Shown: positions 6,082-37,678, numbered from the stretch's first letter. The stretch is 50,783 bases of DNA from Alphaproteobacteria bacterium (GCA_024279675.1 JAJRRG010000011.1:1-50783); one strand, 5' to 3'. Program-made: numbers and translations. Notes: generated from the sequence alone by a model not told the origin.

Positions 6082-7203
6082 ATGAGCAAAGACATTCTGC
6101 AAAAATTCAACGCACGGCGCATCATCGCACTCATCCGTACCCACGGCCCGCTCTCGCGTTTGCAATTAACCCAAATGCTGGGTGTTGCCCCCTCCACCGT
6201 AACCCGACTAGTCAACCAGATGATGGACATAAATCTGCTGACCGAATTCCCGAACCCCGAAAAACAGGGGCAAAAGGGTTTTCCCGCCAAATTATTACGC
6301 TTTGTTTCAGATAGCTTGGTTACAGCGGGTGTGTTCTTTGACCCGGATCGGATTTTTACCTGCATTGCAGATTTTGATGGAAATCCCCTGAGTGAAGAAG
6401 AAATACCCATTACCGAGCGCTCCTTTGAAGCCATCCTTAGTCAAGCCAGCCAAAGCATCAATAATCAAATCGAGGCCCTTAAGCTCAACTCCACACATAT
6501 CGTTGGATGTGGTGTTAGCTATCCGGGCCAGCACACCGAAGAGCCGGGCCGCAACCTTAAAACCAAACAATTTTCCAATTGGCCCAATGTCGATGTGCTG
6601 AACGATTTACAACCATTTTTTGATTTCCCCGTTTACCAGATCAACGATGCCAAGGCCGCCTGTCTTGGTGAAATGCTTTATGGCGCCTGCAAACCATACC
6701 AGAATTTTTGCTACATCTGGTTATCCTATGGAATAGGTGGTGCCGCCGTCATCGATCAAAATCTTTACCTCGGCAATAACTTAGCCGCCGCCGAATGGGG
6801 CGGACTTTTTCCAAAGTCCAAAATGCGCCCTTCTGGTCAACATTTTTTGGATACACTGCGCGCGTCAGGGCATGAATTAAAGCGCCTAGACAGCATCACT
6901 GACTGGCATTTAGAGCAACCCGAAGCCCGGCAATGGATTGATGAAGCCACACAAAGCCTACAATGGCTAAGCCTTGTTATCGCACGAACATTTGCCCCTG
7001 AAGCTATTGTATTTGGCGGTACCCTCAATGCAAGCCTGATTGATGAAATTCAAACCCGAATTGCATCCGCAAAACATCTGGGTGAAGACTTCTTAATTAG
7101 CCCACCGGACATATTGCGCGCAACGACAGATAATAAACCCCAATTAGGTGCCGCAGCCCTCGCCATTCACGAAATGCTTAGCCCATCCAAATTCACGCAA
7201 TAA
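6082..7203 (+). CDS. ROK-family transcriptional regulator (N-terminal wHTH plus sugar-kinase-like domain)
   Basis: N-terminal MarR-like HTH (ARRIIALIRTHGPLSRLQLTQMLGVAPSTVTRLVNQM). ROK body motifs are present (GCGVSYPG, INDAKAACLGE, YGIGGAAV). Confidence 0.8.
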   Translation: MSKDILQKFNARRIIALIRTHGPLSRLQLTQMLGVAPSTVTRLVNQMMDINLLTEFPNPEKQGQKGFPAKLLRFVSDSLVTAGVFFDPDRIFTCIADFDGNPLSEEEIPITERSFEAILSQASQSINNQIEALKLNSTHIVGCGVSYPGQHTEEPGRNLKTKQFSNWPNVDVLNDLQPFFDFPVYQINDAKAACLGEMLYGACKPYQNFCYIWLSYGIGGAAVIDQNLYLGNNLAAAEWGGLFPKSKMRPSGQHFLDTLRASGHELKRLDSITDWHLEQPEARQWIDEATQSLQWLSLVIARTFAPEAIVFGGTLNASLIDEIQTRIASAKHLGEDFLISPPDILRATTDNKPQLGAAALAIHEMLSPSKFTQ

Positions 7204-7230
7204 GTAAATTGCCGCGAGATTGGTAAAATT

Positions 7231-7261
7231 ATGGTGGTGGCGAGAGAAGAAACCTCGAACC
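7231..7261 (+). repeat. att-like imperfect direct repeat, copy 1 (ATGGTGG...GAAACCTCGAAC)
   Basis: This 31-mer matches 7385-7415 at 24 of 31 positions, aligned by eye. It begins with ATGGTGG, the complement of a tRNA CCACCAT 3' end. Confidence 0.5.
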
Positions 7262-7384
7262 AAAACCAAGCGACCGAAGAGGTTGCCGGTCAACATTTTA
7301 GACTTTACTGTCCACAAGAAAAGAGTGGTTTAGGTTCGCTGAACCTGCAAGCACACTGCATTTTAGCGCTAAGTCCTGGATTAA

Positions 7385-7415
7385 ATGGTGGACGTACGAG
7401 GAGAAACCTCGAACG
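7385..7415 (+). repeat. att-like imperfect direct repeat, copy 2; it overlaps the proposed left island junction
   Basis: ATGGTGGACGTACGAGGAGAAACCTCGAACG. Its first 7 nt are part of the 9-bp repeat AAATGGTGG (7383-7391), which is shared with 36700-36708. Confidence 0.5.
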
Positions 7416-7524
7416 CACTGTTTGATACTTTAGAGGAGTGGAATGACTACCTCAACAAAGAAAATATTGATCCGCTAAAACTGTCCCCAAACAAACCCCA
7501 CCTTCAAAATCGGGGGCCACGGCC

Positions 7525-7947
7525 ATGAGACAGCAGGAAACCAATACCAGTGCTAATTCTGTTGTCTCGCATGAACTTAGAGGGCAATCGCTACGTATTA
7601 CGCTTCGCCTGACAGAAAAAGAATTGGCAACACTCACAAACCTATCCAAGGGAATGTCCCGAAGTGCCTATATTCGGTACTGCATTTTTGGAAAAGATAC
7701 CGCGCCACGGAAAACACGGTTGCGCGTTCCTGTCGAGGATCAAAAAGCGTTAGCGCAGGTTCTTGGTTTATTGGGCCAAACCAAATTCTCCAACAACCTT
7801 AATCAGCTAGCATATCACGCAAACTGTGGATCACTTCTTATTGACGAACAAACCGAGGGTGAAATCAAAGTAGCTTGCGCCCACATCGCTTGGATGAGAG
7901 TAAAACTAATCGAAGCCCTTGGCTTAAAATTGGGTGGTGAGCAATGA
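7525..7947 (+). CDS. mobC: MobC-family mobilisation accessory protein (RHH-like)
   Basis: LRITLRLTEKELATL is RHH-like and NNLNQLAYHAN matches the MobC NLNQ-type motif. The stop overlaps the relaxase start (ATGA at 7944-7947). Confidence 0.75.
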   Translation: MRQQETNTSANSVVSHELRGQSLRITLRLTEKELATLTNLSKGMSRSAYIRYCIFGKDTAPRKTRLRVPVEDQKALAQVLGLLGQTKFSNNLNQLAYHANCGSLLIDEQTEGEIKVACAHIAWMRVKLIEALGLKLGGEQ

Positions 7948-9233
7948 TCTTGAAAGCGAGCCAACGTGGTGGCGGTTCTCAACTAGCTGTTCATTTACTT
8001 AAAACTGACGATAATGAACATGTTGAAATCCATGAGGTCAGCGGCTTTATGTCCGATACACCAATGGATGCATTCAAAGAAGCTCACGCGGTAAGTCGAG
8101 GCACAAAATGCTCACAATTTCTATTTTCATTAAGTCTTAGCCCACCAGAACAAGAAAAAGTTCCCATTAGCGTATTTGAGCAAGCTATCGCTGATATTGA
8201 AAAGAAAGTCGGATTGGTGGGGCAACCGCGCGTGATTGTCTTTCATGAGAAAGAAGGTCGCCGTCACGCCCATTGTGTCTGGTCGCGTATTGATGTCCAG
8301 AAAATGAAAGCAATCAACCTCCCCCACTTCAAGCTAAAATTACAAGATATTTCACGCCAACTTTACATTGATAATGATTGGCAAATGCCGCTGGGCTTAG
8401 TGAACAGCACAGAACGTAATCCTCTCAACTTCACTCAAGCTGAATGGCAACAAGCCAAACGCATTAAACAAGACCCACGTATTATCAAAAGAACATTTCA
8501 GGATTGTTGGGCAATTTCCGATTCACGCAAAGGCTTTGCCAATGCGCTTGAGGAACGAGGGTATTACCTTGCCAAAGGGGATCGCCGCGGATTTGTCGCC
8601 GTTGATTGGCGCGGTGAGGTTTACGCAGTCTCAAAATGGGTTGGAGTCAGAACCAAAGAGCTAAAAGCCAAACTCGGCAAATCTGACGCCCTGCTTTCAG
8701 TCACAAAAACCAAAGAGCGTTTAACCGGAAAATTCACTGATAAGCTAAAGCTATTTTCAGATGATGAATTGGCAAAACAGGAGAAGGCTTCATCCGTACA
8801 TGAGGCCAAACGAAAATCATTAGTTGCGGTACACCAACAGGTACGAGAACAACTGAAACAATCCCAATCCACCAGACACGAGCAAGAAACAAAAACTCGA
8901 TCTACGCGACTACCAACCGGCCTGAAAGCTCTTTGGTTTCGCGTTACCGGTAAATACAAGAAAATCAAAAAGCAGAATGAATCTGAAACATTGGTTTGCA
9001 AACTAAGAGATCGATCAGAACAGCAAAAACAAATTGATGTGCAACTATTAGAACGAAGGCAGCTACAGCGTGAAATTCGTCTTCTGCGCCATCATCATCA
9101 GGTCAGAGTCAAAAAGCTCAATCGTGAAATAAGTAATTATTTAAAGTTATCGCCTGCCAGTCAAAACGTTAAATTCGAAAATCAGGTTAAACTAAATATT
9201 CGAACTAAGCTCAAGAAACGGCTTTCAATTTAA
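7944..9233 (+). CDS. Relaxase/mobilisation nuclease (VirD2/MobA-type N-terminal domain plus coiled-coil tail)
   Basis: The N-terminus MILKASQRGGGSQLAVHLL and the histidine triad HEKEGRRHAHCVWSRI are typical of the relaxase family. The C-terminal half is basic and coiled-coil. Confidence 0.85.
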   Translation: MILKASQRGGGSQLAVHLLKTDDNEHVEIHEVSGFMSDTPMDAFKEAHAVSRGTKCSQFLFSLSLSPPEQEKVPISVFEQAIADIEKKVGLVGQPRVIVFHEKEGRRHAHCVWSRIDVQKMKAINLPHFKLKLQDISRQLYIDNDWQMPLGLVNSTERNPLNFTQAEWQQAKRIKQDPRIIKRTFQDCWAISDSRKGFANALEERGYYLAKGDRRGFVAVDWRGEVYAVSKWVGVRTKELKAKLGKSDALLSVTKTKERLTGKFTDKLKLFSDDELAKQEKASSVHEAKRKSLVAVHQQVREQLKQSQSTRHEQETKTRSTRLPTGLKALWFRVTGKYKKIKKQNESETLVCKLRDRSEQQKQIDVQLLERRQLQREIRLLRHHHQVRVKKLNREISNYLKLSPASQNVKFENQVKLNIRTKLKKRLSI

Positions 9234-10003: not shown

Positions 10004-13000
10004 TTGTTTCACAGAGAATTACTTCTCACTAAGGGGGGCAAGTCAAATCTTGAGCAACTTATCGCTCATCAATGGGTACAACAACGCGAGCTGGAAAATG
10101 TGTTCTACAAGGAATATCGTGCGTTTCGTGAAAAGCTTTATGAAACTCTTGTTGAAGCAAACCCGAACTTTCCCGGTACTAAAGGACGATTAGTTCGCCT
10201 CTCCCAGAAAATACTCGACAGGTGTATTTTTATCTTTTTCTGTGAAGACATGGGAAGTGCTCTTAATTACCCGCCGCAGCTTCTGCGCAACTTACTCATC
10301 AATGATAGTCGCGATGAGTTTTATGATCCAAATGAAAATACGATTTGGGCACGATTGAAAAGTTTATTCACATCTATGAATGAGGGATCGCCTTTTCGTC
10401 AGCATAAAATCAATCAGTTTAATGGTGGGCTTTTTGCCGAGGATGCGGAACTTAATTCTTTGGAAATTCCCAACCAGATTTTCTGCGTTCCAGGGCAAGG
10501 TGAAAACGAGGCCAGTTTATACTCTCACAAAGAAACGCTGCTTTATCTTTCAGCAGCTTACAATTACGCATCTGAAAGTTTGGATACGGAACAAGGTCAT
10601 ACACCGATCCTTGGTGATGCCGCCAAGAATGACCCGTCCAAGAGCCTTGGCTTGTATACATTGGGTCGAATTTTTGAACAGTCGATCACCGAACTTGAAA
10701 TCTTAGAGGCAAAAGCAGACGGCCTGCTTTCGGTCAATGAGGAAAGCAAACGTAAACGCGATGGAGTATTTTACACGCCTGAATGGGTCGTTGAAAAAGT
10801 TGTTCACCATACTGTCGCACCACTTTTTGACGAATTGAAAGCAAACGCTGGCTGGCCAACTAATGAGGAAAAATATCCAACCCCAGAGGCAATCAACGCG
10901 TACCGCGAAGAGTTGCGCAATGTAAGGATCGTCGATCCCGCCTGTGGATCAGGAGCATTTCTAATCACCGCCTTGCGTTATCTGGTCACCGAATGGCATG
11001 CACTGCGTGGGCTGGAAGAGATCGCTGCCCAAGATGAACTAAAAAGGGCGCTTTCTTCTAAGAAAGGTGTCACCAAAGCGCGCCGCAGGTTGAAAGACAC
11101 CCAAACTGTTAGAGATGACTCGGCTCTGATCAACGACATCCTGAAAGAGAACATATACGGCGTAGATATCAATCCGGCATCGGTTGAAATTTCCCGCCTT
11201 GCGCTATGGCTGCACACCGCGCGTGGCGACAAGCCTCTCTCTTCGCTTGAAGGCACCATCAAAACTGGCAACAGCTTGATTGGCCCAGATTTCTATGAAG
11301 GGCGCATGGACCTTGATAGTTATGATGCGGAGCAACGCGATCGAATCAATGCCTTTGATTGGCAGGAAGAGTTTTCTGATGTTTTTGCCAGTGGTGGGTT
11401 CGATGCCGTTGTTGGCAATCCACCCTATGTAAAGTTACAGAATTTTCGAAAAGTTCATGCCGATATGGCGGTGGCATTGAAAGTGCGGGGCGACGGTTCC
11501 GTTGCTTATGAAAGCACACAAACTGGGAATTTTGATCTCTACCTGCCTTTTATCGAACAGGGACTCCGGCTTTTGAATGAGCGCGGACGTATGGGGTATA
11601 TCTGCCCAAGTTTATGGGAGATGAATAAGTACGGATCCGGTCTGCGTGGTTTGATTGAACGTGGACGCAATCTGGAAGGCTGGATAAATTTCCGGGCATT
11701 CCAAGTTTTCGACGAAGCGATCACTTATTGCGCTCTTCAATTCTTTTCCAAGCGTAGAAATGAGGTTGTCAAAATCGCAATGGCCGTTGATGGTGAGGTT
11801 TCCGATAACCCGTGGCCTGACCATAATTGTGAACTGCCCTTCGAAAAAATCGGTTTTGAAGAACGGTGGCTTCTTCTGACTGGCCCAGATCGGCAGTTAA
11901 TCGACGATCTCTATGAACGATGCGAAAAGCTGTCAGACTACGTTGGGAATAACAATATTTCGCAAGGAATAATCTCTGGAGCATTTCCAATCTTTTCTCT
12001 TCGAAAAAAGGAAGACGGAAGCTTTTTGAACGAAAAATCGAACATTACACTTCCCAAAGATCTTCCGTTGGTTTTGAGGCTTGCAACTGGTGAACATATT
12101 CGGCGATTTGAGGAGCCCGATTCTGATCTGTTTATCATTTTTCCCTACGATTTTTACCAAGGCCGAGCAACGATTGTTGCACCAGATAAGTTCCCAACCA
12201 AGTATCCTGACGTCTTCAATTATCTAGAAAAATTTGAATCTGATTTGCGTAAGCGAGATTCAGGAGGGCTCGACAAACCAACATGGTATGAATACAGCCG
12301 AACCCAGAACCTCAACAAGCAACAACAAGCAAAACTGCTAATAGCCGGTACAGCACCGGGGCTTCGGGTCTCATTGGATAATGATGGCAGTATTGCTGCT
12401 AATGATAAACGTGTTTACACAATCACATCACAAGACGAAGGAACACTACTGTTTCTACTCGGAGTATTAAACTCAAAAGCAATAGACTTTGTTTTTCGCC
12501 GAATAGCACGCCCAAAAGTCAATAATTTCTTTGATATTGAAAAGCAATTTCTTGCACCACTTCCCATTCCTACAGCGGATGATAAGCGAAAAGAAAACAT
12601 TGCAGCACAAGCAAAAACATTGCAAAAACTGACGACAAAACGCCGCGATATGGCAATCCGCATTACTAAACGTGGCAGCAGTCTCAAAATCAAAAAACGC
12701 CCACTTCATTGGCTCTTCCCGGACTTACCATCGCTTGATGATTTAGAAGAGGCCGCACCGCAAGGCTCCGATACGCGAGAGCGTAAAGCTTGGGCAAAAA
12801 CCAAGCTTGCAGAGGCTATCACGGCAAAGCACGAAGAAATCACCGGACGTTTAAACCCAACGGCAGAGCTTTCTGCGCGGTTCAAAGATGGTGAGTTATC
12901 CTTCTTTGTGGATCATGTGTCTGTTGTATCAGATGTCTGGCTTGACGACGGCGAAGGCACTTTTATCGCTGCCCAATGGTCCAATTTTGCCGCAACATTT

Positions 13001-13225
13001 AACATCACTGAAAAATCCAATGGGAAACAACTGTGCGATGCGCTTTTGAAGGTCGGCGAAACTGACAACACTGCCCTGCGGGACCAAATCATCAAGCTGC
13101 AAGGCGAAATGGCCGCACTTGATATTGAAATTGCCGCCAAAGAACTAGCACTCGACCAAGAAATTTTTGACCTCTACCAGTTAACCGATGATGAAATCGA
13201 AATGATAGAGCAGGACCGTTTATGA
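10004..13225 (+). CDS. Type IIG R-M enzyme body: helical spacer, gamma-class N6-adenine methyltransferase, target-recognition domain
   Basis: ILDRCIFIFFCEDMG (spacer), YTPEWVV (motif X), DPACGSGAFL (motif I), NPPY at 11417-11428 (motif IV), followed by a long C-terminal TRD. The listed start is a TTG. The frame is continuous upstream to 9890, so this is probably one gene with 9348-9959. Confidence 0.85.
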   Translation: MFHRELLLTKGGKSNLEQLIAHQWVQQRELENVFYKEYRAFREKLYETLVEANPNFPGTKGRLVRLSQKILDRCIFIFFCEDMGSALNYPPQLLRNLLINDSRDEFYDPNENTIWARLKSLFTSMNEGSPFRQHKINQFNGGLFAEDAELNSLEIPNQIFCVPGQGENEASLYSHKETLLYLSAAYNYASESLDTEQGHTPILGDAAKNDPSKSLGLYTLGRIFEQSITELEILEAKADGLLSVNEESKRKRDGVFYTPEWVVEKVVHHTVAPLFDELKANAGWPTNEEKYPTPEAINAYREELRNVRIVDPACGSGAFLITALRYLVTEWHALRGLEEIAAQDELKRALSSKKGVTKARRRLKDTQTVRDDSALINDILKENIYGVDINPASVEISRLALWLHTARGDKPLSSLEGTIKTGNSLIGPDFYEGRMDLDSYDAEQRDRINAFDWQEEFSDVFASGGFDAVVGNPPYVKLQNFRKVHADMAVALKVRGDGSVAYESTQTGNFDLYLPFIEQGLRLLNERGRMGYICPSLWEMNKYGSGLRGLIERGRNLEGWINFRAFQVFDEAITYCALQFFSKRRNEVVKIAMAVDGEVSDNPWPDHNCELPFEKIGFEERWLLLTGPDRQLIDDLYERCEKLSDYVGNNNISQGIISGAFPIFSLRKKEDGSFLNEKSNITLPKDLPLVLRLATGEHIRRFEEPDSDLFIIFPYDFYQGRATIVAPDKFPTKYPDVFNYLEKFESDLRKRDSGGLDKPTWYEYSRTQNLNKQQQAKLLIAGTAPGLRVSLDNDGSIAANDKRVYTITSQDEGTLLFLLGVLNSKAIDFVFRRIARPKVNNFFDIEKQFLAPLPIPTADDKRKENIAAQAKTLQKLTTKRRDMAIRITKRGSSLKIKKRPLHWLFPDLPSLDDLEEAAPQGSDTRERKAWAKTKLAEAITAKHEEITGRLNPTAELSARFKDGELSFFVDHVSVVSDVWLDDGEGTFIAAQWSNFAATFNITEKSNGKQLCDALLKVGETDNTALRDQIIKLQGEMAALDIEIAAKELALDQEIFDLYQLTDDEIEMIEQDRL

Positions 13226-13246: not shown

Positions 13247-15877
13247 ATGACTAAAGATGAAACCGTCAACAAATCCGATACTGTACTTGAAAAAATTATG
13301 TCTTGGTCCATCAAACGACCAATGTGGCAGCGAGATGCGCTACGCCGCATCGTAATCGACGGGTTTCCTGATGACCAAGCGATCAGTGAGATTTTAGCAC
13401 TGTGCAAGAAGGAACTAGGCGACGAGACTGTTACCATTAGTTCTTATCCTCTTTCCAAAGATCATTTGCCTGTTGATCCTGGAGTTGGCGAATCCATTGG
13501 GCTTGAATCTATTTCAAATGTTGTTGGAGTGAACCAGCTTGCGACTAGCCAAACGCTTCCATTTGAGACCAATGGCTTGACCATTATATATGGGCCTAAT
13601 GGTACAGGTAAGTCGGGTTACACACGGATACTAAAAAAAGCCTGCCGTTCGCGACATGCGGGCGATATTATGCCTGATGTTTATAATCCTTCACCAAAAG
13701 GAAACGCTACAGCTAACTTAAAGATTTCTCGTACAAACGGATCGACCGAACTAATCTCATGGGAAGATAATGATAAAGCGGCAGAAACCCTTTCCGCGAT
13801 CACCGTATTTGACAGAGACTCTGCATCTGTTCACATCCAAAAGAAGAATGAAGTTTGGTTTCGACCTTTTGGGTTGGATATTCCAGACGATCTTGCTGGG
13901 GTGTGTCAAGAATTAAAGCACCTCCTTATGTCAGAAAAGGAAGTGCTTGAAAAACAACGCAGCGACACATTTCTGAATCCCAGTTGGTCGAGCAGCTCCT
14001 CTATCGGCAAAACTATGTCTGCGCTTCAGTATGATACAGACATCTCGGCAATGGTTCCAAAGAAAGATTTTTCAGAAGAAGATGAACTCCGGCTAACAGG
14101 TCTACAGGTTGATTTGGCTCAAGATGGAGCCGTGGCAGCGGCCTCAAAACGGGACTATGCTACTCGCTTAGAACAGCTAGTTACTTATTTGAAAAAAATT
14201 GATGCAATAATTAATGATGCAGCATTAGTAGAACTGATTAAATTAAAAACGCGAGCTGATGAAACCAGATCAGTCGCCGATATCGCAGCAACCGATGCAT
14301 TTTCCGGATTAAGACTCGAAGGCGTCGGAGAAAAAACTTGGCGGACACTTGGGGAATCCGCTCGTGCCTATTCACAGTCACTCAATGAAGTCAGTATTTC
14401 TTTGCCACCTCAACAGGGTGAAGTTTGCGTTGTATGTCATCAAGAAATTGACGAACAAACAGCAGATAGAATGAGTGGTTTCGAAACATTCATAAAGCAA
14501 GACACAGAAACCAAAGCATCGGGTGCAGAGAAGGCACTCAGGGAAGCAGTCAACAACTTTAAAGCAGTAGAAATTCACATAGAAAAAGTGTCGGCAACTT
14601 GGCAGTTGCTACGTAAAAATAATTTTCCTTTAGCAAGGCAGGTTTTGAGATTTTTTGCCATTGCTCGCTTACGGCAACGCCAAACATTAGTACAAATTTC
14701 TGATAACAAATTGATTGGATTTACAATATTACCAGCGTCCCCAGAAGTAGATGTAAAAAAAGAAGCCAAGTTGACGCGAGATTATGCTGCTTCATTGGAT
14801 GCCGATGTGGATGATATAGCGAAAGAAATAATACTCAACGAATTGGCCAACCTTCAAGACAGAAAACAGGTGAGTCATTTACTAGAAATCGGTGAGGCAG
14901 AAATAACTCGTCTGAAAGAACTGCATCTAATTGAAGGGTGTTTGAAAAGCACAGCAACAGCAGCGATCACACGACTTGGAAATGATATAGCAGACGACCT
15001 AATCACACCGTTGATGCGCGATAGATTTCAAAAAGAAATCGTTGAACTAGCAGGAAATCGCGTACGGGTTGAAGTCGTACGATCCGGTGGAAAATTTGGT
15101 TCACCGCAGTACGAAGTGAAGCTCTATGCTAATCCTAAAACCAAGGGGCATGAAGTTCTAAGCGAAGGTGAACAAACTTGTGTAGCACTAGCTTCATATC
15201 TCACGGAACTTGCAAATGCCTCGCATACTTCCGCCTTGGTATTTGATGATCCGGTGACTTCATTAGATCATAGGTGGCGAGCAAAAGTTGCAAAACGCCT
15301 CGCAAAAGAAGCAGGTACCCGACAGGTCGTTGTATTTACTCACGACATGATTTTTGTAAACGACATGTTACAAATGGCAATTACAAAGAACATACCTATT
15401 GGCTTATCTCATTTATCACGCAGCCAAGATTCTGTCGGAATAGTGAATCCAAAATTGCCATGGACTGCATCAAGTGTACGTGACCGGATAGATAAACTTG
15501 AAAAGAAAGCAAGAGAAGCAAAAGTACTTTTTGATGCCCAAGACGACGAAGGATATAAATCTGCAGCATCATCACTCTACAGTAGATTACGGGCAACTTG
15601 GGAACGTGCACTTGAAGATATAGTATTTGCAAATGTGGTTATGCGGCACCGCGATTACATTGATACAAAAGGCCTAAAACGTGTGACCGCACTAGAGGCT
15701 AGCGATGTTGAAACATTTCAAATTAGTTTCAAAAAATGCTGCGACTTTGTTGATGCGCATGACCCTTCGCGTGGACATGACCCAGAGCCACCCGATCCGC
15801 AAGAAATGAAACAAGACATCGAAAAATTAAAAACGTGGTCGGAGGCATTACGAGCAAAGATGAATGCAGTGACTTAG
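13247..15877 (+). CDS. rloC: RloC/PrrC-like ABC ATPase (AAA_13 type) with coiled-coil insert, CxxC zinc hook and C-terminal putative anticodon-nuclease region
   Basis: Walker A GPNGTGKS (13592-13615). C394-V-V-C397 (14426-14437) lies midway between Walker A and LSEGEQ/Walker B (ALVFDDP)/FTHD. It starts 21 nt downstream of the R-M gene. Confidence 0.65.
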   Translation: MTKDETVNKSDTVLEKIMSWSIKRPMWQRDALRRIVIDGFPDDQAISEILALCKKELGDETVTISSYPLSKDHLPVDPGVGESIGLESISNVVGVNQLATSQTLPFETNGLTIIYGPNGTGKSGYTRILKKACRSRHAGDIMPDVYNPSPKGNATANLKISRTNGSTELISWEDNDKAAETLSAITVFDRDSASVHIQKKNEVWFRPFGLDIPDDLAGVCQELKHLLMSEKEVLEKQRSDTFLNPSWSSSSSIGKTMSALQYDTDISAMVPKKDFSEEDELRLTGLQVDLAQDGAVAAASKRDYATRLEQLVTYLKKIDAIINDAALVELIKLKTRADETRSVADIAATDAFSGLRLEGVGEKTWRTLGESARAYSQSLNEVSISLPPQQGEVCVVCHQEIDEQTADRMSGFETFIKQDTETKASGAEKALREAVNNFKAVEIHIEKVSATWQLLRKNNFPLARQVLRFFAIARLRQRQTLVQISDNKLIGFTILPASPEVDVKKEAKLTRDYAASLDADVDDIAKEIILNELANLQDRKQVSHLLEIGEAEITRLKELHLIEGCLKSTATAAITRLGNDIADDLITPLMRDRFQKEIVELAGNRVRVEVVRSGGKFGSPQYEVKLYANPKTKGHEVLSEGEQTCVALASYLTELANASHTSALVFDDPVTSLDHRWRAKVAKRLAKEAGTRQVVVFTHDMIFVNDMLQMAITKNIPIGLSHLSRSQDSVGIVNPKLPWTASSVRDRIDKLEKKAREAKVLFDAQDDEGYKSAASSLYSRLRATWERALEDIVFANVVMRHRDYIDTKGLKRVTALEASDVETFQISFKKCCDFVDAHDPSRGHDPEPPDPQEMKQDIEKLKTWSEALRAKMNAVT

Positions 15878-16377: not shown

Positions 16378-19300
16378 TTAAATAATCAAGTTACCTGATG
16401 CTTCCAAGGCAACCTCATCGGTGAGGCCGGTAACATGAAACATTCTGGCGATTTGAACAAAATTATCTCCGCCACCATCGGCGTCAACAGCCAAGAAGCT
16501 ATCGACTGCATCTTCGGTAATTTGAACGAATTCCGTTAGATCATCCGTCGATGAATTATAAACTGAAAGTAAATCAGATATATCCAGTACATCATTATCG
16601 CTAAGCTTAAAATCTTGTATGCGGTCATGAATAGTAAATGCGCTTGCAGCTTCAAACATGAATGTATCCGCCCCGCCTTGACCATATAGAGCATCATTTC
16701 CGCCCTGACCGTACAGGATGTCATCGCCATTACCGGCAGTTATAGTATCATTACCATCCCCGCCATAAAGGATATCATCGCCGTTACCGCCATTGATATT
16801 ATCGATGCCGCCACCGCTATAAATTGTGTCATTTCCGTTATGACCTTTTAGAGCGTTTGATGCGGCGTCACCGGTGAGTACATCATCGGCGCGTGAACCA
16901 ATTAATCTTTTGACAGTAGTGAAGGTATCATCGGCGATATTATCATTATTTTTATCAACACTTCCTGCCCCAATATCAATGTTAACCGCCGTGTTCACAT
17001 AGGCGTAAGATATTGTGTCATTTCCGCTTCCGCCATCTACGAAACTTGCCCCCTGCGCGCCCAATAAAAAGACATCATTATTTGCGCCGCCATAAAGCGT
17101 GTTGATTCCGGTAGTAGAATACAGAGCATTAAAAGTATCATTACCCGCTTCGCCATAGGCCGTATTCACACCATTTCGAATAGAAATTCGATCATGACCT
17201 GCGCCGGCGTGAATGACGTTATCATTACTATCGCCCCAAAGATTATCTGACCAGTCCGAGCCAATTAAGTTTTCTATATTGACGAGCGTATCACTACCGC
17301 CAAGCCCGTCATTGCTGGCTGTTCCATTTATTAATTGAGCGGTAACCGCAGAAGTTGCTCCTGCATAAGATGCGGTATCATTACCCGCGCCACCATCAAG
17401 GGTATCATCGCCTGCGCCGCCCCATAACAGATCGTCACCATCCAAGCCGCTGATAATATCATCATCAGTCGTACCGGTTAGCGTGTCATTACCGGGCGTT
17501 CCAATAATATCATCTGTCTGTAAAACACCATCAACATAAACATCCATGATTTCAAAGTCAGACAAGAGCACGCCCGTGCTTGTGGTTACCGCTAAGCCAT
17601 CACTAATTGGGTCTGCGCTGACATCAAGAAATGCTGGGTAGCTGTCAAGTTCTGGCTGATAAACAGCATAGTCTGCCGCGGTTAGATATAGTTTTAAGGT
17701 GTCGGTTCCAACCCCAGCAAAAAGATAATCAAAATTGCCGGTGTTCTCGGCAACATTATAAGTGATCGTATCATCACCATCGCCGCCGTAAACATAATCA
17801 ACCCCTGCGCCGCCATCGAGAGTATCGTTGCCATTACCACCCGTAAGCGTATCTCCGCCAAGCCCGCCGTTTATGGTGTTGTCATTGGCATCGCCCGTGA
17901 TGTTATCGTAAAAGGATGATCCAATAATATTTTCAATATTGATAAGCGTGTCTTTTCCACCATCGCCATCCTGCACTGTTGTACCCGCATCCAAATCAAC
18001 AATTATTCCTGAAATTGCAGCGGAGTAATCGGCGGTATCAATTCCTACGCCGCCGTCTAATGCATCATTTCCTTGGCCGCCAATCAGAACATCGTTATCC
18101 GCGCCACCTTTAAGAGTATCATGGCCAGTACCGCCATTTAATGTATCTGCCCCAGCGTCACCATTAAGAACATCATTCCCATCGTCACCATTTAGGATGT
18201 CGTCACCAAGGCCGCCGTGAAGCGCATCATCATCACTGCCACCATTTAATGTGTCATCATCGTCTTCGCCGAATAACTCATCATTCCCGTAGCCACCTAA
18301 AAAATTATCATTGCCCGCGCCGCCGTGGAAAATATTTGCATTAATATCACCGGTAAACATGTCCACAAAAGCAGAGCCTGTCAGGTTTTCAATGCCGGTT
18401 AAAGTATCACTTCCGCCAAAGCCATCGCTGGCGATGCCAGTTGATAGGTTTACGTTTGTCGCTGAACTAGACGACGAATAATTGGCTGTGTCATTACCCA
18501 AGCCGCCATCAAGAGTGTCATTCCCACTACCGCCGACAAGCACATCATTGCCTGCACCGCCATAGAGCGTATCATCTTCGCTACCACCATCAAGATTATC
18601 GTTGCCAGCCCCAGCACTTATAATATCATCACCTGCGCCACCAATAATCACATCATTGCCATAGCCAGTAACAACAACATCATCGCCCACCAAAGCATCA
18701 ATATTATCATCCCCATTGGTTCCAAGGATGAAATTATTATTGCCATCAATGACATTATTATAAATCCAAGTCAGGGTTTCAAACCCTATAGCTTGCAAGC
18801 TGGTCGCCGCACCAAAATTTAAGGTAAGCTCAAACGCATTACTCGCTCCACTTGAAGGCGTTACAAAATCATCAAGTTGTTTTTGATATTCAAGCCTTTG
18901 TTCAAAAAGTGTCGCAACTTCGGCGGCGGTCAAATTATTAGCCACGAGGTCAGCTTCACTCGCTTGAATTTGCAGGATATCAGCACCCGAACCACCAACA
19001 TATTTATCATTCGCACCAATATTGTCGGTGAAATTATAGATTAGAGTATCATCATCCGCGCCGCCGAATAGCTCATCATCCCCCGCACCGCCCGTGATCG
19101 TATCATTACCAAAACCGCCAAATATATGATCTTCTCCGCCAAGCCCATAAGCAGTATCATCACCTGCACCTAGATAGATATCTTCCCCAAATAAATTAGT
19201 TCCGTGAACGGTATCATCGCCATCAAACACCATGATGCCATCGCCGCTCCCTCCGCCTCTGAAACTTTCAGTTGAGGAAGTTAAGTTAACCGTATCGTCC

Positions 19301-31280: not shown

Positions 31281-31586
31281 ATGACACCAGAAAAATCTTC
31301 AATAGATGAGGTTGTAAATGTCAATGCCAAGCTACTATCCGCCTTTCTATTGGGGGGTGTGGCTTGGTGGCTGTGGCCAAGCACTCCAGAATTATGGGGT
31401 TTAGCTCTACCAAGTATTTTAATCGGTCTTTCAGCATCAGGAAAGCTCATTGCGGTCCTTAAAGCTATCCGTAAAACAAGTGCCCGCGTGCAGGTTGTAT
31501 CAACCTTGAAGCAGAATTCTATTGAACCCAAATCGTCATCGTTAATTTCTGAGGATGACTTAAGAAAAGCGGGGATGATTGAATGA
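31281..31586 (+). CDS. Two-TM protein resembling the N-terminal membrane anchor of a VirD4/TraG coupling protein
   Basis: Two TM helices are followed by SSLISEDDLRKAGMIE, which resembles the post-TM ...ELRKAGL motif of T4CPs. Its stop overlaps the start of the T4CP NTPase ORF (ATGA at 31583-31586). Confidence 0.5.
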   Translation: MTPEKSSIDEVVNVNAKLLSAFLLGGVAWWLWPSTPELWGLALPSILIGLSASGKLIAVLKAIRKTSARVQVVSTLKQNSIEPKSSSLISEDDLRKAGMIE

Positions 31587-32968
31587 GTAAAATATTCAGG
31601 CGTCCTTTGGGTCTTTTGGAAAACGGAAAGCTTATTAGTGATCCCTACCCAAATACTTCTTCCTTGATTTATGGGGCAAGTGGTTCGGCAAAAACCACAA
31701 CAGTCGTATTACCTTTGGTGCAGGCCTTAATGGGGAGCACGGCAATCGCCAATGTTACCGCCGACGTTAAGGACGGTGAGGTATATAGCCAAATTTCAAC
31801 TATGTGCGACAAGTATAATTTTCGCCATGGATGTTTAGATGACTTCAAGATTTTAGGTCGCGACAATCCTAACAGAAAGTCTCTAAACCCATTTGGAGCG
31901 ATTGTTGAAACTGCAAAAAACAATCCTGACGATCTTTTATTTACGATTCAAACGGCAACGTTAGCTTTAATCCCAGAGGTTCCCGGGGATAACAAAAACA
32001 AATATTTCCTTGATATGCCGCGCGATGAACAAGATTTAGGAATTAGAATTCTTCTTGATCATCAACATGACATGGTTACGCCCGGCGCGCTTTATTGTTT
32101 GATGGCAGACCCTAAAGTTTGGCGCAGTGCGCGTGAGATCGCCGCTGAAGAAGGTAGTCCTGCACTGCAATCACGCGCGCAACAGTCGCTTGATATGCAA
32201 AACAATGACCCAGAACATTATTTCCAGCATTTACGCGCTGCCCTATTTTCATTACGCATTTATGAGCCCGGATCAGCCCTTCACAATGTTGGGCGTGATG
32301 CAGACCTGACCCATGAACAAATCATCAAGGAAAGCTGGATTTTTTGTCTAGTCCAACCCCAACGCCACGCGGCAAGGGTTGGAACGCATTTAGCACTTCA
32401 CCTGCAAGCCTTTATGCACGCACAGTTAAAAGCTGGTGCAGGCCGAACAATTTATACGCTGGATGAGCTATGTAATGCCCCACTAAAGGAAGCGGTAGAT
32501 CGCGTTACAATTCAAAGATCATACAATGCTTCTAGCATTTACATAGCGCAATCGCGTTCGGATATTCAGAGAAAATATGGTGAAAAGGATGCTGTGATAC
32601 TCGAAGAAAACTGTCCGGTGGTGCAATGGCTAAGTTTTTCGAATGTAGAAGAAGCGGAGGGCATTTCTCGTGCCATGGGCGAAACAAAGAGTGTTTCACA
32701 AAGCATTGGCCTAAATTCTGATAAGTCAGATTTTACCCGCAATTTCAGCGCCGGAAAAGAACGTCTTTTCACCCCTGACGAATTGATGAATCTTGATCCA
32801 AATTATCAAATCATCAGGATTAAAGGGCATGGATACATCCATTGTAAAAAACTGTTTCAAAATCAGATAGCCCCTACCTGCTTCGACCTCGCTGTTAATC
32901 CACTGGAAGGCGGCATTTTACCGCCTGACCCTAAAGTTACTCTGCCCGTAATCAAGCGAGGTGACTAA
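31583..32968 (+). CDS. Type IV coupling protein (VirD4/TraG family), cytoplasmic NTPase portion
   Basis: Walker A GASGSAKTT and Walker B TLDELCNAP. IYIAQSRSDIQRKYGEKDA and LFTPDELMNL are typical TraG/VirD4 segments. This ORF has no TM region. Confidence 0.8.
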   Translation: MSKIFRRPLGLLENGKLISDPYPNTSSLIYGASGSAKTTTVVLPLVQALMGSTAIANVTADVKDGEVYSQISTMCDKYNFRHGCLDDFKILGRDNPNRKSLNPFGAIVETAKNNPDDLLFTIQTATLALIPEVPGDNKNKYFLDMPRDEQDLGIRILLDHQHDMVTPGALYCLMADPKVWRSAREIAAEEGSPALQSRAQQSLDMQNNDPEHYFQHLRAALFSLRIYEPGSALHNVGRDADLTHEQIIKESWIFCLVQPQRHAARVGTHLALHLQAFMHAQLKAGAGRTIYTLDELCNAPLKEAVDRVTIQRSYNASSIYIAQSRSDIQRKYGEKDAVILEENCPVVQWLSFSNVEEAEGISRAMGETKSVSQSIGLNSDKSDFTRNFSAGKERLFTPDELMNLDPNYQIIRIKGHGYIHCKKLFQNQIAPTCFDLAVNPLEGGILPPDPKVTLPVIKRGD

Positions 32969-34806: not shown

Positions 34807-35172
34807 ATGAAAGACGATACGGGCAATCAGGAAAGTAGCGTAACGGTGGGTGTAAGCACTCCACAAGCATTGAGCATTGATTGGGAATTATATGGTAAGT
34901 ATCTGGATGAATCTGACCTTACCGAAGAACAAAAACGAGAGTTTATTGAAACCCTATGGTCAATCGTAGTTTCATTTGTTGATTTAGGGTTTGGTGTTCA
35001 CCCCCTGCAACAAGTGCCGCCATCCACGCATTGTGAACAGAACACAGATTTAGCTGAGTTTTTGACTAAAAAATCGGCTGATGTGTTAAACTCTAAAAAC
35101 AATACCAACTTACAATTCAAAAACGCCAGCAAAGGATCATCAGATTCATTGAACAAGAGGAGTGCGACATGA
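34807..35172 (+). CDS. Hypothetical small protein translationally coupled to the serine recombinase (candidate directionality factor; speculative)
   Basis: 121 aa. Its stop overlaps the recombinase start (ATGA at 35169-35172). Confidence 0.5.
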   Translation: MKDDTGNQESSVTVGVSTPQALSIDWELYGKYLDESDLTEEQKREFIETLWSIVVSFVDLGFGVHPLQQVPPSTHCEQNTDLAEFLTKKSADVLNSKNNTNLQFKNASKGSSDSLNKRSAT

Positions 35173-36746
35173 CATCAGAAAAGGAAAACAAAACCATCAC
35201 AAAAACTGCTGTCATTTACTGCCGCGTTTCCAGTGTCAAACAAAGTAAACAGGGTCATGGCTTAGAATCCCAAGAAACCAGATGCCGCCAATATGCTGAG
35301 CTACAAGGCTATGAAGTTGAAGCTGTATTTCCTGATGATGTTTCTGGTGGCGGGGATTTTATGAAACGCCCCGGCATGGTTGCACTCTTGAGTTACTTAA
35401 AAGCCCAGCCTGATAAAAACTATGTTGTCATTTTTGATGATTTAAAGCGATTTGCTCGCGATACCGAGTTTCATTTTAAGCTGCGGCGCATGTTTGCTGA
35501 ACGTGGCGCGCAAGTTGAATGCCTTAATTTTAAGTTTGAGGATTCGCCAGAAGGTAAATTCATTGAAACCATCATCGCCGCTCAAGGTGAGTTAGAACGC
35601 CAGCAAAATGGCCGTCAGGTAAGCCAAAAGATGCAAGCGCGCATGGCCAAGGGTTATTGGGTGTTTCGCGCACCCATGGGCTATAAATATGAAGATACTA
35701 AGGAACATGGCAAGCTATTGGTAAGAGATGAGCCTATGGCATCTATCATTACCGAAGCCATGGAAGGCTATGCCCTTGGGCGGTTTGAAACCCAATCAGA
35801 GGTTAAGCGTTATTTTGAAAGCCATCCCATATTTCCCAAAAATCAAAGCGGCTATGTTTCCCAACAGAGGGTCGTCGACATTTTTATTCGTCCAATTTAT
35901 GCCGGTTACATTCATCATCAGGATTGGAAACTAAATTGGATCAAGGCCAAGCATGAGCCGCTAGTTTCTCTACAAACTTTTGATGCGATACAAAAACGCC
36001 GAAATGGTTTTGCTAAAGCCCCCATGCGTAAAAATATCAATCATGACTTTCCACTGCGCGGTTTTGTATTATGTGGTGATTGCAACAAGCCCTATACCGC
36101 CTGTTGGTCAAAAGGCCGCCTCAAAAAATATGCCTATTATTTATGTGACACTAAAAACTGTGTCAGCTATCGTAAGTCTATTCCCCGCGATAAAATCGAA
36201 AATGGGTTTGCAGATATTGTGCGCACCCTTCGGCCAACTGATGATTTATTTGCGCTTGCTAAGGTGATGTTCAAGAATGCTTGGGATCAACGCGGCGAGC
36301 AGGCACAAGCTTTAATCCATGCTCTTAAAGCTGAAACAAAGCTGATAGAAAAGCAGATTGAGGGGCTTTTAAACCGCGTTATCAACACAAGCAGCTCAAC
36401 CATGATCGATGCGTATGAGACAAAAATTGAAGGATTAGAGCAACAACGCCGCATTATGAGTGAAAAACTTCAAAATACTGCCCCGCGACAAGGTAGGTTT
36501 GAGGATTTTATCGAACACGCTCTAAATTTTCTCGCAAACCCTTACAAACTATGGGCTTCCGAGCAGTTTAACCACAAGCGAACAGTGCTTAGATTGGCGT
36601 TTTCTGACCGTATCATCTACCACCGTGAAAAAGGTTATCGAACACCTAAAATGTCATTACCTTTCAAGGTGTTAAGTGGTTTTGAGACAGGGGAAATAGA
36701 AATGGTGGGCCCGGTAGGACTCGAACCTACGACCAGACCGTTATGA
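35169..36746 (+). CDS. Large serine recombinase (integrase)
   Basis: AVIYCRVSSVKQ contains the catalytic Ser. It has resolvase and recombinase domains, a zinc ribbon (CGDCNKPYTACWS...YYLCDTKNC) and a coiled-coil. The last 14 codons plus the stop are read antisense through the tRNA gene. Confidence 0.9.
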   Translation: MTSEKENKTITKTAVIYCRVSSVKQSKQGHGLESQETRCRQYAELQGYEVEAVFPDDVSGGGDFMKRPGMVALLSYLKAQPDKNYVVIFDDLKRFARDTEFHFKLRRMFAERGAQVECLNFKFEDSPEGKFIETIIAAQGELERQQNGRQVSQKMQARMAKGYWVFRAPMGYKYEDTKEHGKLLVRDEPMASIITEAMEGYALGRFETQSEVKRYFESHPIFPKNQSGYVSQQRVVDIFIRPIYAGYIHHQDWKLNWIKAKHEPLVSLQTFDAIQKRRNGFAKAPMRKNINHDFPLRGFVLCGDCNKPYTACWSKGRLKKYAYYLCDTKNCVSYRKSIPRDKIENGFADIVRTLRPTDDLFALAKVMFKNAWDQRGEQAQALIHALKAETKLIEKQIEGLLNRVINTSSSTMIDAYETKIEGLEQQRRIMSEKLQNTAPRQGRFEDFIEHALNFLANPYKLWASEQFNHKRTVLRLAFSDRIIYHREKGYRTPKMSLPFKVLSGFETGEIEMVGPVGLEPTTRPL

Positions 36747-36779
36747 GCGGTCGGCTCTAACCAACTGAGCTACAGGCCC
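36703..36779 (-). tRNA. tRNA with CAT anticodon (elongator Met, or Ile2/lysidine type)
   Basis: I folded the reverse complement by hand: GGGCCTG-TA-GCTC-AGTTGGTTA-GAGC-C-GACCG-CTCATAA-CGGTC-TGGTC-GTAGG-TTCGAGT-CCTAC-CGGGCCC-ACCA (77 nt). All four stems pair. It is not initiator-like. C4:G69/C5:G68 and the Ile-like 5' half leave Ile2 possible. Confidence 0.9.
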
Positions 36780-36940: not shown

Positions 36941-37678
36941 ATGCCTCGTCCTGTCCTGTCTTTACTCGTTTCTGCGGTGTTCGCACTGATGGTTATTTCA
37001 CCCGCGCAAGCGCAAACTATTCAGACACCAAGCACCATTTCCCTGACCGGATATGGCGAGGTTTCCGGGGCTCCAGATATGGCGATCATAAGTTCGGGTG
37101 TGGTAACACACGGCGCAACGGCCCGTGACGCACTGGATGCCAATACCACCGCCATGAATGAAATTTTTGCCATTCTTCTTGGGGCAAATATTGCGCAAAA
37201 AGATATTCAGACATCGGGATTTTCTGTGCAACCCCAATATCAATATTCTGACATCCGCGATACCAATGGCTACCCCCTGCCCCCGCGCATTCTAGGCTAT
37301 CAGGTTTCCAATATGCTGAGCGTTAAAGTGCGCAATCTAGATGATTTGGGTCAATTGCTCGATAGTTCAGTCAGTGTGGGTGCCAACCAGATCAATTCGA
37401 TTTCCTTTGCTGTCACAGATACCACCCCTTTGCTCAATGACGCACGCCGTGCCGCCATGCTCGACGCCATCGCCAAGGCAGAACTTTACACGCAGGCCGC
37501 AGGGGTAAACCTTGGCAATATCATTGCAATATCAGAGGGCAGTCCCAACTTCGCCCCTCAACCTGACATGGTAGTGATGTCACGCATGGCCGAGTCTTCT
37601 TCATTCGTTCCCGTTGCCGCCGGTGAATTGAGCTTTTCCAAACAGGTTTCAGTGGTTTGGGAACTGATACAAGAATAA
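36941..37678 (+). CDS. SIMPL-domain (DUF541/BP26-like) periplasmic protein
   Basis: Signal peptide present. LTGYGEVSGAPDMAIISSGV, GYQVSNMLSVKVRNLD and SVGANQINSISF are typical SIMPL segments. Confidence 0.8.
   Translation: MPRPVLSLLVSAVFALMVISPAQAQTIQTPSTISLTGYGEVSGAPDMAIISSGVVTHGATARDALDANTTAMNEIFAILLGANIAQKDIQTSGFSVQPQYQYSDIRDTNGYPLPPRILGYQVSNMLSVKVRNLDDLGQLLDSSVSVGANQINSISFAVTDTTPLLNDARRAAMLDAIAKAELYTQAAGVNLGNIIAISEGSPNFAPQPDMVVMSRMAESSSFVPVAAGELSFSKQVSVVWELIQE

Follow-up and report, generated by a model that had tools for sequence, protein, structure and literature searches.

The subject of this analysis is a stretch of 50,783 nucleotides from an Alphaproteobacteria bacterium (GCA_024279675.1, JAJRRG010000011.1:1-50783; the whole stretch is called the window below) and, within it, the gene of a large serine recombinase (LSR) together with a short open reading frame (ORF) that would complete this gene when the element carrying both is closed into a circle. 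As deduced from sequence, positions 7383-36708 are a mobilizable island of 29.3 kb that was put in at the CCA end of a tRNA-Met gene by the LSR. The recombinase gene, int, occupies the right end of the island on the plus strand (35169..36746) and encodes, in its integrated isoform, a protein of 525 aa with the Pfam domains PF00239 Resolvase, PF07508 Recombinase and PF13408 Zn_ribbon_recom. The tRNA-Met(CAT) gene (36703..36779, minus strand; called by ARAGORN and Rfam) contributes its 3' CCACCA as the B' side of the crossover. One copy of a 9-bp core, AAATGGTGG, forms the left island boundary (7383..7391, unstranded; by sequence and flank comparison) and the other lies at the right end (36700..36708, unstranded), where the crossover dinucleotide is inferred to be GT at 36705-36706. 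The left end opens with the extension ORF (7385..7528, plus strand; 47 codons and a stop, translation MVDVRGETSNALFDTLEEWNDYLNKENIDPLKLSPNKPHLQNRGPRP), which continues the int frame in the circle, followed by a NikA/MobC-like relaxosome accessory gene (mobC; 7525..7947, plus) and a MobA/VirD2-type relaxase gene (7944..9233, plus), both identified with Pfam; a type IV coupling protein gene (T4CP, TraG/VirD4-like; 31583..32968, plus) is located 5' of int. The observations set out below make it probable that the core of attP, the attachment site of the circular element, lies inside the 3' end of the LSR gene, that the circle yields a 558-aa isoform with a conserved helix, coupled to mobC and the relaxase gene, and that integration swaps this tail.

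In the window, ATG GTG at 7385-7390 begins the 47 open codons, TAA at 7382-7384 shuts the frame immediately upstream, and the terminal TGA at 7526-7528 overlaps the mobC ATG (7525-7527) as ATGA. The LSR frame, for its part, reads GAA ATG GTG at 36699-36707 with no stop ahead of the crossover, and after ..EMV the integrated protein ends with 12 codons, GPVGLEPTTRPL*, which are the antisense of tRNA-Met(CAT). When the ends are joined (36699, the repeat, 7392), the product is 558 aa long as compared to 525 aa in the integrated state; the predicted junction peptide of the fused product is VLSGFETGEIEMVDVR, and GETSNALFDTLEEWNDYLNK is named alongside it as a second target for mass spectrometry. The first-pass annotation of the window had claimed a joint from 36699 to 7392 through the 9-bp repeat, a 47-codon frame bounded by these two stops and ending in the mobC overlap, and growth of the recombinase from 525 to about 558 aa; the coordinates match base for base, each element of the frame was verified and the computed product has the anticipated length. 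Its estimate that 47 codons stay stop-free about one time in ten likewise agrees with the computed chance in the window alone (P ~0.07-0.10), which becomes ~0.02-0.03 when the ATGA overlap is included. Window-only figures of this kind are suggestive and fall short of decisive; as far as sequence can settle the matter, the comparative evidence is what decides it.

The position of the crossover can be deciphered from two near-identical islands (L159 and L160), which share with the window no similarity in their left flanks and become identical to it exactly at AAATGGTGG; since the flanks differ and identity starts at this core, the crossover junction falls within the 9-bp repeat. Because the crossover sits at the CCA end of the tRNA-Met gene, the gene is left intact. 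The P arm of attP (36672..36704, plus) falls within the 3' end of int, where it codes for the variable residues ..SGFETGEIEM, while the P' arm (7386..7414, plus) comprises the codons MVDVRGETSN and is a mimic of the tRNA T-loop, with CTCGAAC at 7408-7414 and the T-loop CTCGAAC of tRNA-Met itself, a putative zinc-ribbon-domain (ZD) motif, at 36720-36726. The two arms are related by reverse-complement symmetry, CTCAAAAC against CTCGAAC at equal offset as read from the sequence, and the centre of symmetry is the GT of ATGGTGG. In a structural model of LSR attachment sites the distal ZD motif lies 5 bp nearer the centre in attB than in attP (PMC3783163). Counted from TGGTGG, CTCGAAC occupies offsets 18-24 in the tRNA arm and 23-29 in the left arm of the island, and (C/T/A)TCGAAC is found at the same pair of offsets in the islands L028 (at tRNA-Tyr) and L045 (at tRNA-Ala). 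The window, L028 and L045 consequently share a short core and a distal motif that is 5 bp closer in attB; the core measures 7-9 bp, and in L028 and L045 the identity core is TGGTGGA only. It had been recognised at the outset that a crossover outside the repeat could break the frame; three islands with differing flanks and the att geometry agree in placing it inside.

The protein itself has the character of a large serine recombinase, with three Pfam domains, long predicted helices and matching folds. Its AlphaFold2 (AF2) model has a mean pLDDT of 80.9 with long helices at residues 358-436, and the best Foldseek matches are the SPbeta, Bxb1, phiC31 and LI integrases, at E down to 1e-16. The joined 558-aa protein matches 3,508 homologues, most of them from Alphaproteobacteria. 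In 116 of the best 120 the crossover dipeptide stands exactly 9 residues past LPFKxL, reading MV, LV, MA or VV in 83 of these, xG in 32 and YT in 1; the xG subgroup (32/116) reads TGGTG one base later within the codon. None of the 116 LPFKxL-bearing homologues has a stop ahead of the crossover. Their tails beyond it range from 1 to 143 aa (median 19) and resemble antisense tRNA (for example EPRGIEPLTS and RPRRLELPRV), and the extension is absent from these database homologues, as expected of integrated copies. Judged by these sequences, the attP core is inside the int ORF throughout the LSR family, and the annotated C-termini are by-products of the target tRNA. The family targets the CCA/T-loop end of many tRNA genes, directly observed for Met, Tyr and Ala and implied by the tails for others, and homologue lengths of 510-709 aa merely mirror the position of the first stop met. 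The xG subgroup accounts for roughly a quarter of the homologues (P0023, P0027, P0040, P0052, P0086, P0100 and others) and carries tails of the form ..GARTPK..xG|A..TRT; in its islands (such as L158, which has a T4CP) the mobC-relaxase-extension module was not seen, with L009/L161 as the exception. A pairing of the subgroup-2 recombinase P0100 with the relaxase P0202 on the same contig was discarded, as the two lie 300 kb apart and do not belong to one island.

Conservation of the extension among homologues had been set beforehand as the test of the proposal, and it was assessed in 80 loci fetched around relatives of the window relaxase. With tblastn the 47-aa peptide was found in 50 of the 80 loci at E <= 0.01, a number that a motif scan raises to ~60; the tblastn matches are always located just 5' of mobC and on the same strand, and the peptide is present at the left ends of related islands. 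Extension-bearing loci span Alpha-, Beta- and Gammaproteobacteria, Nitrospirota and Nitrospinota, and the aligned loci are merely 36-66% identical. A codon alignment of 51 extension sequences, which underlies the zone, entropy and overlap counts given here, separates two zones of different character. Zone A (MVxxxGETSN, the first 30 nt) is kept as DNA, third positions included, with Ser encoded by TCG in 42/51 and Asn by AAC in 48/51; this conservation at the DNA level identifies Zone A as the P' arm of attP. Zone B (xLFExLxEWNxYLKxENID) corresponds to the segment at 7415..7471 (plus), which encodes the conserved amphipathic helix ALFDTLEEWNDYLNKENID and is under purifying selection at the amino-acid level. 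Second-position entropy in Zone B is ~0 while third-position entropy amounts to 1.5-2.0 bits; the invariant Leu is written as TTA, TTG, CTG or CTC, and the Trp and two Leu are invariant in 51/51. The pN/pS values are 0.73 / 0.76 in the upstream flank, 0.30 / 0.37 in Zone A and 0.40 / 0.81 in Zone B. Over the ~20 codons of LFxxLxxWNxxL, synonymous sites are saturated and nonsynonymous sites constrained, which is a protein-coding signature. Among the window, L159 and L160, differences in the helix zone are synonymous whereas those in the tail are not. With this signature and constraint extending across five bacterial classes or phyla, the C-terminus of the circular form is a selected module, and the anticipated conservation was borne out.

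An open frame arising by chance, or non-coding conservation 5' of mobC such as an attP arm or an oriT, could account for some of these observations: in the window alone the open frame with its ATGA overlap has a P of ~0.02-0.03, the first 30 nt are truly conserved as DNA, and blastn of the extension DNA gives 72-82% identity in 20 loci. The signal is nevertheless specific to one frame, as the five other frames of the 7385-7528 DNA are matched in 2, 1, 10, 16 and 0 loci as against 50 for the extension frame. Past the first 30 nt variation tracks codon position and indels between Zones A and B are whole codons; the peptide is recovered at E down to 1e-17 in a profile search of 5.8 billion proteins, where it occurs only as small ORFs; and relaxase loci lacking this recombinase type have a different DNA motif upstream. 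A chance or non-coding origin can thereby be regarded as effectively refuted. The different motif is repeated 5' of mobC in 11 extension-less relaxase loci (L014, L017, L022, L046, L055, L059, L063, L065, L067, L073 and L080), where it translates in three frames as WLRGxATR, LVAGARNTL and GCGGSQ; it is probably an inverted repeat at the oriT of elements that lack this type of recombinase.

The connection of the extension to mobC is likewise recurrent. Its stop overlaps the mobC ATG as ATGA in 28/51 loci, and other overlaps measure 17 nt in five loci, 14 nt in one, 4 nt in two and 7 nt in one. The arrangement CGGGGGCC(N6)ATGA is found repeatedly among the loci; it is CGGGGGCC, the Shine-Dalgarno of mobC, that is read as the conserved 'RGP' codons, and in the window it appears as GGGGG at 7512..7516 (plus) within the corresponding codons of the extension. 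The extension might accordingly be imagined as a run-on leader that carries ribosomes from int to the mobC start and whose amino-acid sequence has no function, a reading compatible with the ATGA or other mobC overlap in 35/51 loci and with 'RGP' codons that are really a Shine-Dalgarno. A functionless peptide would however not be expected to show purifying selection on LFxxLxxWNxxL with saturated synonymous sites and the Trp and two Leu kept in 51/51, nor to keep the helix in those 16 loci whose ORF ends well short of mobC, and mobC genes have a strong Shine-Dalgarno of their own; we regard such a leader as very improbable. A scan for sigma-70-like promoters over 7204-7525 gave no site, the scan being crude with counts equal to chance, and it was set aside as evidence owing to a performance no better than chance.

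Fusion of the extension to the recombinase is supported by the phase of the two halves and by joined copies in natural DNA. In ~130 distinct loci TGG(T/C)G precedes the (T/S)SN codons by 20 nt in fixed codon phase, a few decayed copies excepted. One locus, L009, departs from this phase, its TGGTG being shifted one base later in the codon, and its island encodes a recombinase with 66-70% identity to the xG subgroup, whose members read the crossover in the matching shifted phase. In a 2-kb contig (L081) the very first base already lies in an open frame that runs through ..LPFKLLKNMDGGEYEMA|QVRGETSNRLFQTLGEW..*, followed by mobC and the relaxase gene, and three other loci (L070, L075 and L082) have recombinase fragments that continue in frame into the extension. 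Of the best 150 matches to a junction profile among 1.84 billion cluster representatives, 39 are fused ORFs of uniform spacing. Joining the ends preserves the frame in all three complete islands, those of the window, L028 and L045, and since no member of the LSR family has a stop before the crossover, translating int from the circle must yield the fusion. The excision-dependent remodelling of the recombinase that had been suggested for the window thus gains support from in-frame recombinase-extension ORFs in real DNA and from the conserved ATGA.

In dozens of cluster representatives (P0361-P0490) a 3' portion of the recombinase, ~60-180 residues long, runs on in frame into the extension. The locus L164 reads as a relaxase fragment followed by recombinase residues 367-513, the extension, mobC and relaxase, a tandem arrangement with an internal deletion, and L165 and L166 hold a fused fragment without a recognisable mobC. 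A metagenome scan with the junction alignment yielded 74 loci via the helix pattern but no further junction with a fused recombinase, and what seemed to match the recombinase half was spurious; a scan of viral contigs gave one locus, which was irrelevant.

The extension could alternatively be a stand-alone small gene of 35-70 aa that starts at the ATG, TTG or GTG of the crossover and supplies a free peptide, for example a small recombination directionality factor (RDF) or a relaxosome accessory, its contiguity with int being incidental. Some serine integrases do have small RDFs, of roughly 60 aa. Gene callers list the extension as small hypothetical proteins (136 in public gene calls, 34-157 aa), a canonical start is present at the first codon in ~45/51 loci with GTG often as the second codon, and translational coupling to mobC would befit the first gene of an operon. 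Against such a gene, the anti-Shine-Dalgarno pairing at the first codon of integrated copies averages -3.0 kcal/mol, near the -2.2 of random positions and far from the -6.8 of mobC starts, and this near-random pairing means that there is no ribosome-binding signal for an independent start of the extension. The DNA 5' of the extension in integrated copies is host sequence that differs per site, and the promoter and ribosome-binding site of a separate gene would thus fall in unrelated host DNA, different at each insertion. Its first 10 codons are moreover an att arm conserved as DNA, the extension is not found detached from the crossover aside from a few decayed copies, and with 116/116 homologues lacking a pre-crossover stop the fusion is unavoidable from the circle. 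A better candidate for an RDF is the conserved small gene 5' of int, a 121-aa ORF (34807..35172, plus) that overlaps the int start by 4 nt and may encode a directionality factor or regulator; its core ..DWELYGKYLDESDLTEEQKREFIETLWSIVVSFVDLGFGVHP.. is conserved, it stands 5' of the LSR gene in L028, L044, L053, L158 and L161, and it has no match in Pfam. On balance a stand-alone gene seems unlikely. The identity of the extension with a known RDF or excisionase was also considered and rejected, there being no Pfam, PHROG or PDB match and no ribosome-binding signal in the integrated copies.

Several observations weigh against the proposal that the extension is the recombinase C-terminus of the circle. 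A full-length long isoform was not found among database proteins, where the fused ORFs are all fragments of 60-223 aa, although clustering at 50% identity could mask full-length long isoforms and circles are seldom assembled. The fused ORFs of L163-L166 sit in decayed or tandem copies and not in intact circles; nor are they partial calls of full-length genes at contig edges, three having unrelated upstream DNA and L166, which opens at a contig edge, seeming interrupted. The phase match of L009/L161 is a single case in which the recombinase runs off the locus, is annotated with 459 aa and may be truncated. A start codon (ATG, TTG or GTG) is present at the crossover nearly always, which would allow independent translation, and coupling to mobC is not universal, since the extension ends 60-180 nt ahead of mobC in 16/51 loci (by difference; 11 with a mapped gap of up to ~180 nt), with the helix kept. 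The peptide has no relatives in Pfam, PHROG or PDB. In the AF2 model of the 558-aa protein, residues 497-521, encoded by the P arm, the crossover and the P' arm, have pLDDT <50, and the packing of the helix on the adjacent C-terminal domain was dropped, as a C-terminal construct (121 residues, with an alignment of 41 natural fused sequences) gave a pTM of 0.31 and no confident docking.

The helix itself was modelled in both cases, as residues 522-536 (ALFDTLEEWNDYLNK) with pLDDT 63-77 in the 558-aa protein and with pLDDT 75-86 in the C-terminal construct. These models suggest a tail in which a flexible tether carries an amphipathic helix, the DNA that codes for the tether serving at the same time as an att site.

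What can be taken as established from sequence and comparison is the geometry of the ORF, selection on the helix at the coding level, the conserved mobC overlap and the in-frame junction ORFs; the crossover is within coding sequence, and the integrated and circular C-termini differ. In the probable mechanism built on them, the circular form, whether excised or newly arrived in a recipient, would have its recombinase read across the joint as the 558-aa isoform, which would consist of the catalytic and DNA-binding body, a flexible linker of ~20 residues coded by the P and P' arms, the amphipathic helix LFxxLxxWNxxL and a short tail. Integration at the CCA end of a tRNA would cut the ORF at the ..MV codons, replace the helix by an arbitrary tRNA-antisense tail and move mobC and the relaxase gene to the opposite island end. 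As T4CP, int, extension, mobC and relaxase are all on the plus strand in the window, closing the circle brings back together a mobilization module whose parts integration leaves at the two island ends, presumably as one co-directional, translationally coupled unit of the form T4CP...int-ext-mobC-relaxase. This co-directional order, with the ATGA, fits a circularization-dependent operon of the Tn916 type, and expression of the mobilization genes may rise on, or depend on, circularization. Since a newly transferred element has the circular gene only, the long isoform would be the one that performs integration in a new host; a single integrated copy encodes the short isoform only, and isoform and reaction direction would in this manner be tied by topology. 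The helix may modulate integration or directionality, or it may contact the relaxosome.

A bolder extension of this mechanism, which we put forward tentatively and hold to be rather doubtful, is that the recombinase family switches direction by the C-terminal swap itself, and that the same event licenses the mobilization genes. The long isoform would then be integration-proficient, its tethered helix acting on the coiled-coil/zinc-ribbon region or on a partner, and the short isoform with its arbitrary tRNA-antisense tail would be excision-competent. The product of the reaction would reprogramme its own enzyme, and a conventional RDF would be unneeded or would only cooperate.

With its own LSR, a NikA/MobC-like gene, a MobA/VirD2 relaxase and a T4CP, the island has the make-up of an integrative and mobilizable element (IME), and no VirB4-like gene was found among the larger ORFs scanned with Pfam, the small ORFs being only partly covered. 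The cargo comprises an MmeI/Eco57I-type restriction-modification enzyme (10004-13225), an AAA/SMC-like ATPase (13247-15877), a 1777-aa RTX serralysin-like protein (16378-21711, minus strand), a small resolvase (23491-24051) and a ParB_N protein (24734-26473, minus strand). The host flanks carry a ROK/MarR-type regulator on the left (6082-7203) and a SIMPL (DUF541) protein to the right of tRNA-Met (36941-37678). A second copy resembling the left arm is present in host DNA at 7231-7260 (ATGGTGGTGGCGAGAGAAGAAACCTCGAAC), 154 nt upstream and 80% identical to 7385-7414, and the two arm copies are separated by DNA with a terminator-like hairpin (7271-7292, minus strand). The L159 island is also preceded by a unit of arm-like copy and hairpin, and one or two similar additional copies (MxxxxGETSN(L/Q)N(R/Q)..VAG) occur 5' of other islands (P0250, P0280 and P0305). 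These extra arm-like copies look like an accretion of att remnants at one tRNA site. The likeness of 7231-7260 to 7385-7414 in translation (MVVAREETSN and MVDVRGETSN) was dropped as protein-level evidence and is ascribed to a second P'-arm-like DNA copy.

The choice between integration and excision is a central question of serine integrase biology and is usually answered by separate directionality factors. What is described here would be a widespread natural family (more than 3,500 recombinase homologues, with members in the five classes and phyla named above) in which the reaction rewrites the C-terminus of the enzyme and connects or disconnects the transfer genes, and which gives a simple, testable model of state-dependent control. 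For annotation, database integrase tails would have to be read as translated tRNA antisense, and small 'hypothetical proteins' 5' of mobC as the missing C-termini of recombinases; for engineering, the analysis defines an integrase family aimed at the universal CCA/T-loop end of tRNA genes.

Comparison with known systems brings out what is shared and what is particular to the island. In the integration-dependent immunity of the mycobacteriophages BPs, Brujita and Charlie, as reportedly described by Broussard et al. in 2013, attP lies inside the repressor gene. There the repressor loses an ssrA-like degradation tag on integration, and the integrase is a tyrosine recombinase. The island resembles these phages in having attP inside a coding gene, in a C-terminus and behaviour altered by integration and in two isoforms, integrated and extrachromosomal; unlike them, it remodels the LSR itself and not a repressor, exchanges a conserved helix for tRNA antisense instead of plainly removing a segment, and also connects or disconnects mobilization genes. 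The archaeal integrases of the SSV1 type (fuselloviruses) have attP inside int as well, but are tyrosine recombinases, and integration breaks them into two parts that do not function. Like the island, these viruses have a recombinase gene that spans attP and is complete in the circle only, and a tRNA gene as target; in the island, however, the catalytic and DNA-binding body of the LSR stays whole and the exchange is confined to a C-terminal module of 35-70 aa. In Tn916 a promoter reads over the joint into the transfer genes, and in Tn4451 the promoter of the serine recombinase TnpX forms at the joint. The joining of ends makes a transcription unit absent from the integrated state in these elements as it would in the island; they act via promoter and transcript, however, while the island joint is inside an ORF, the protein is remodelled and the coupling to mobC is translational (ATGA).

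Phage LSRs with separate RDFs (phiC31/gp3, Bxb1/gp47, SPbeta SprA/SprB) share with the island recombinase the domain architecture, a short core and ZD arms shifted by 5 bp, and differ in att sites outside int and in targets that are mostly protein genes and not tRNA CCA ends. To our knowledge no natural serine integrase has been reported whose C-terminus is swapped by its own reaction, and a limited literature search found no description of one. Engineered integrase-RDF fusions demonstrate that an appendage tethered to the C-terminus by a flexible linker is able to determine in which direction a serine integrase works (PMC5737554); the polarity in the island would be the opposite, as its appendage sits on the integration-competent form. 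The serine-recombinase IMEs of a 2017 review came from Firmicutes only, integrate inside genes and include none with a known RDF (PMC5704250). Overall, integration-dependent gene remodelling is a known logic, and the comparison supports the view that what is new here is its use by a tRNA-targeting serine integrase of mobilizable islands.

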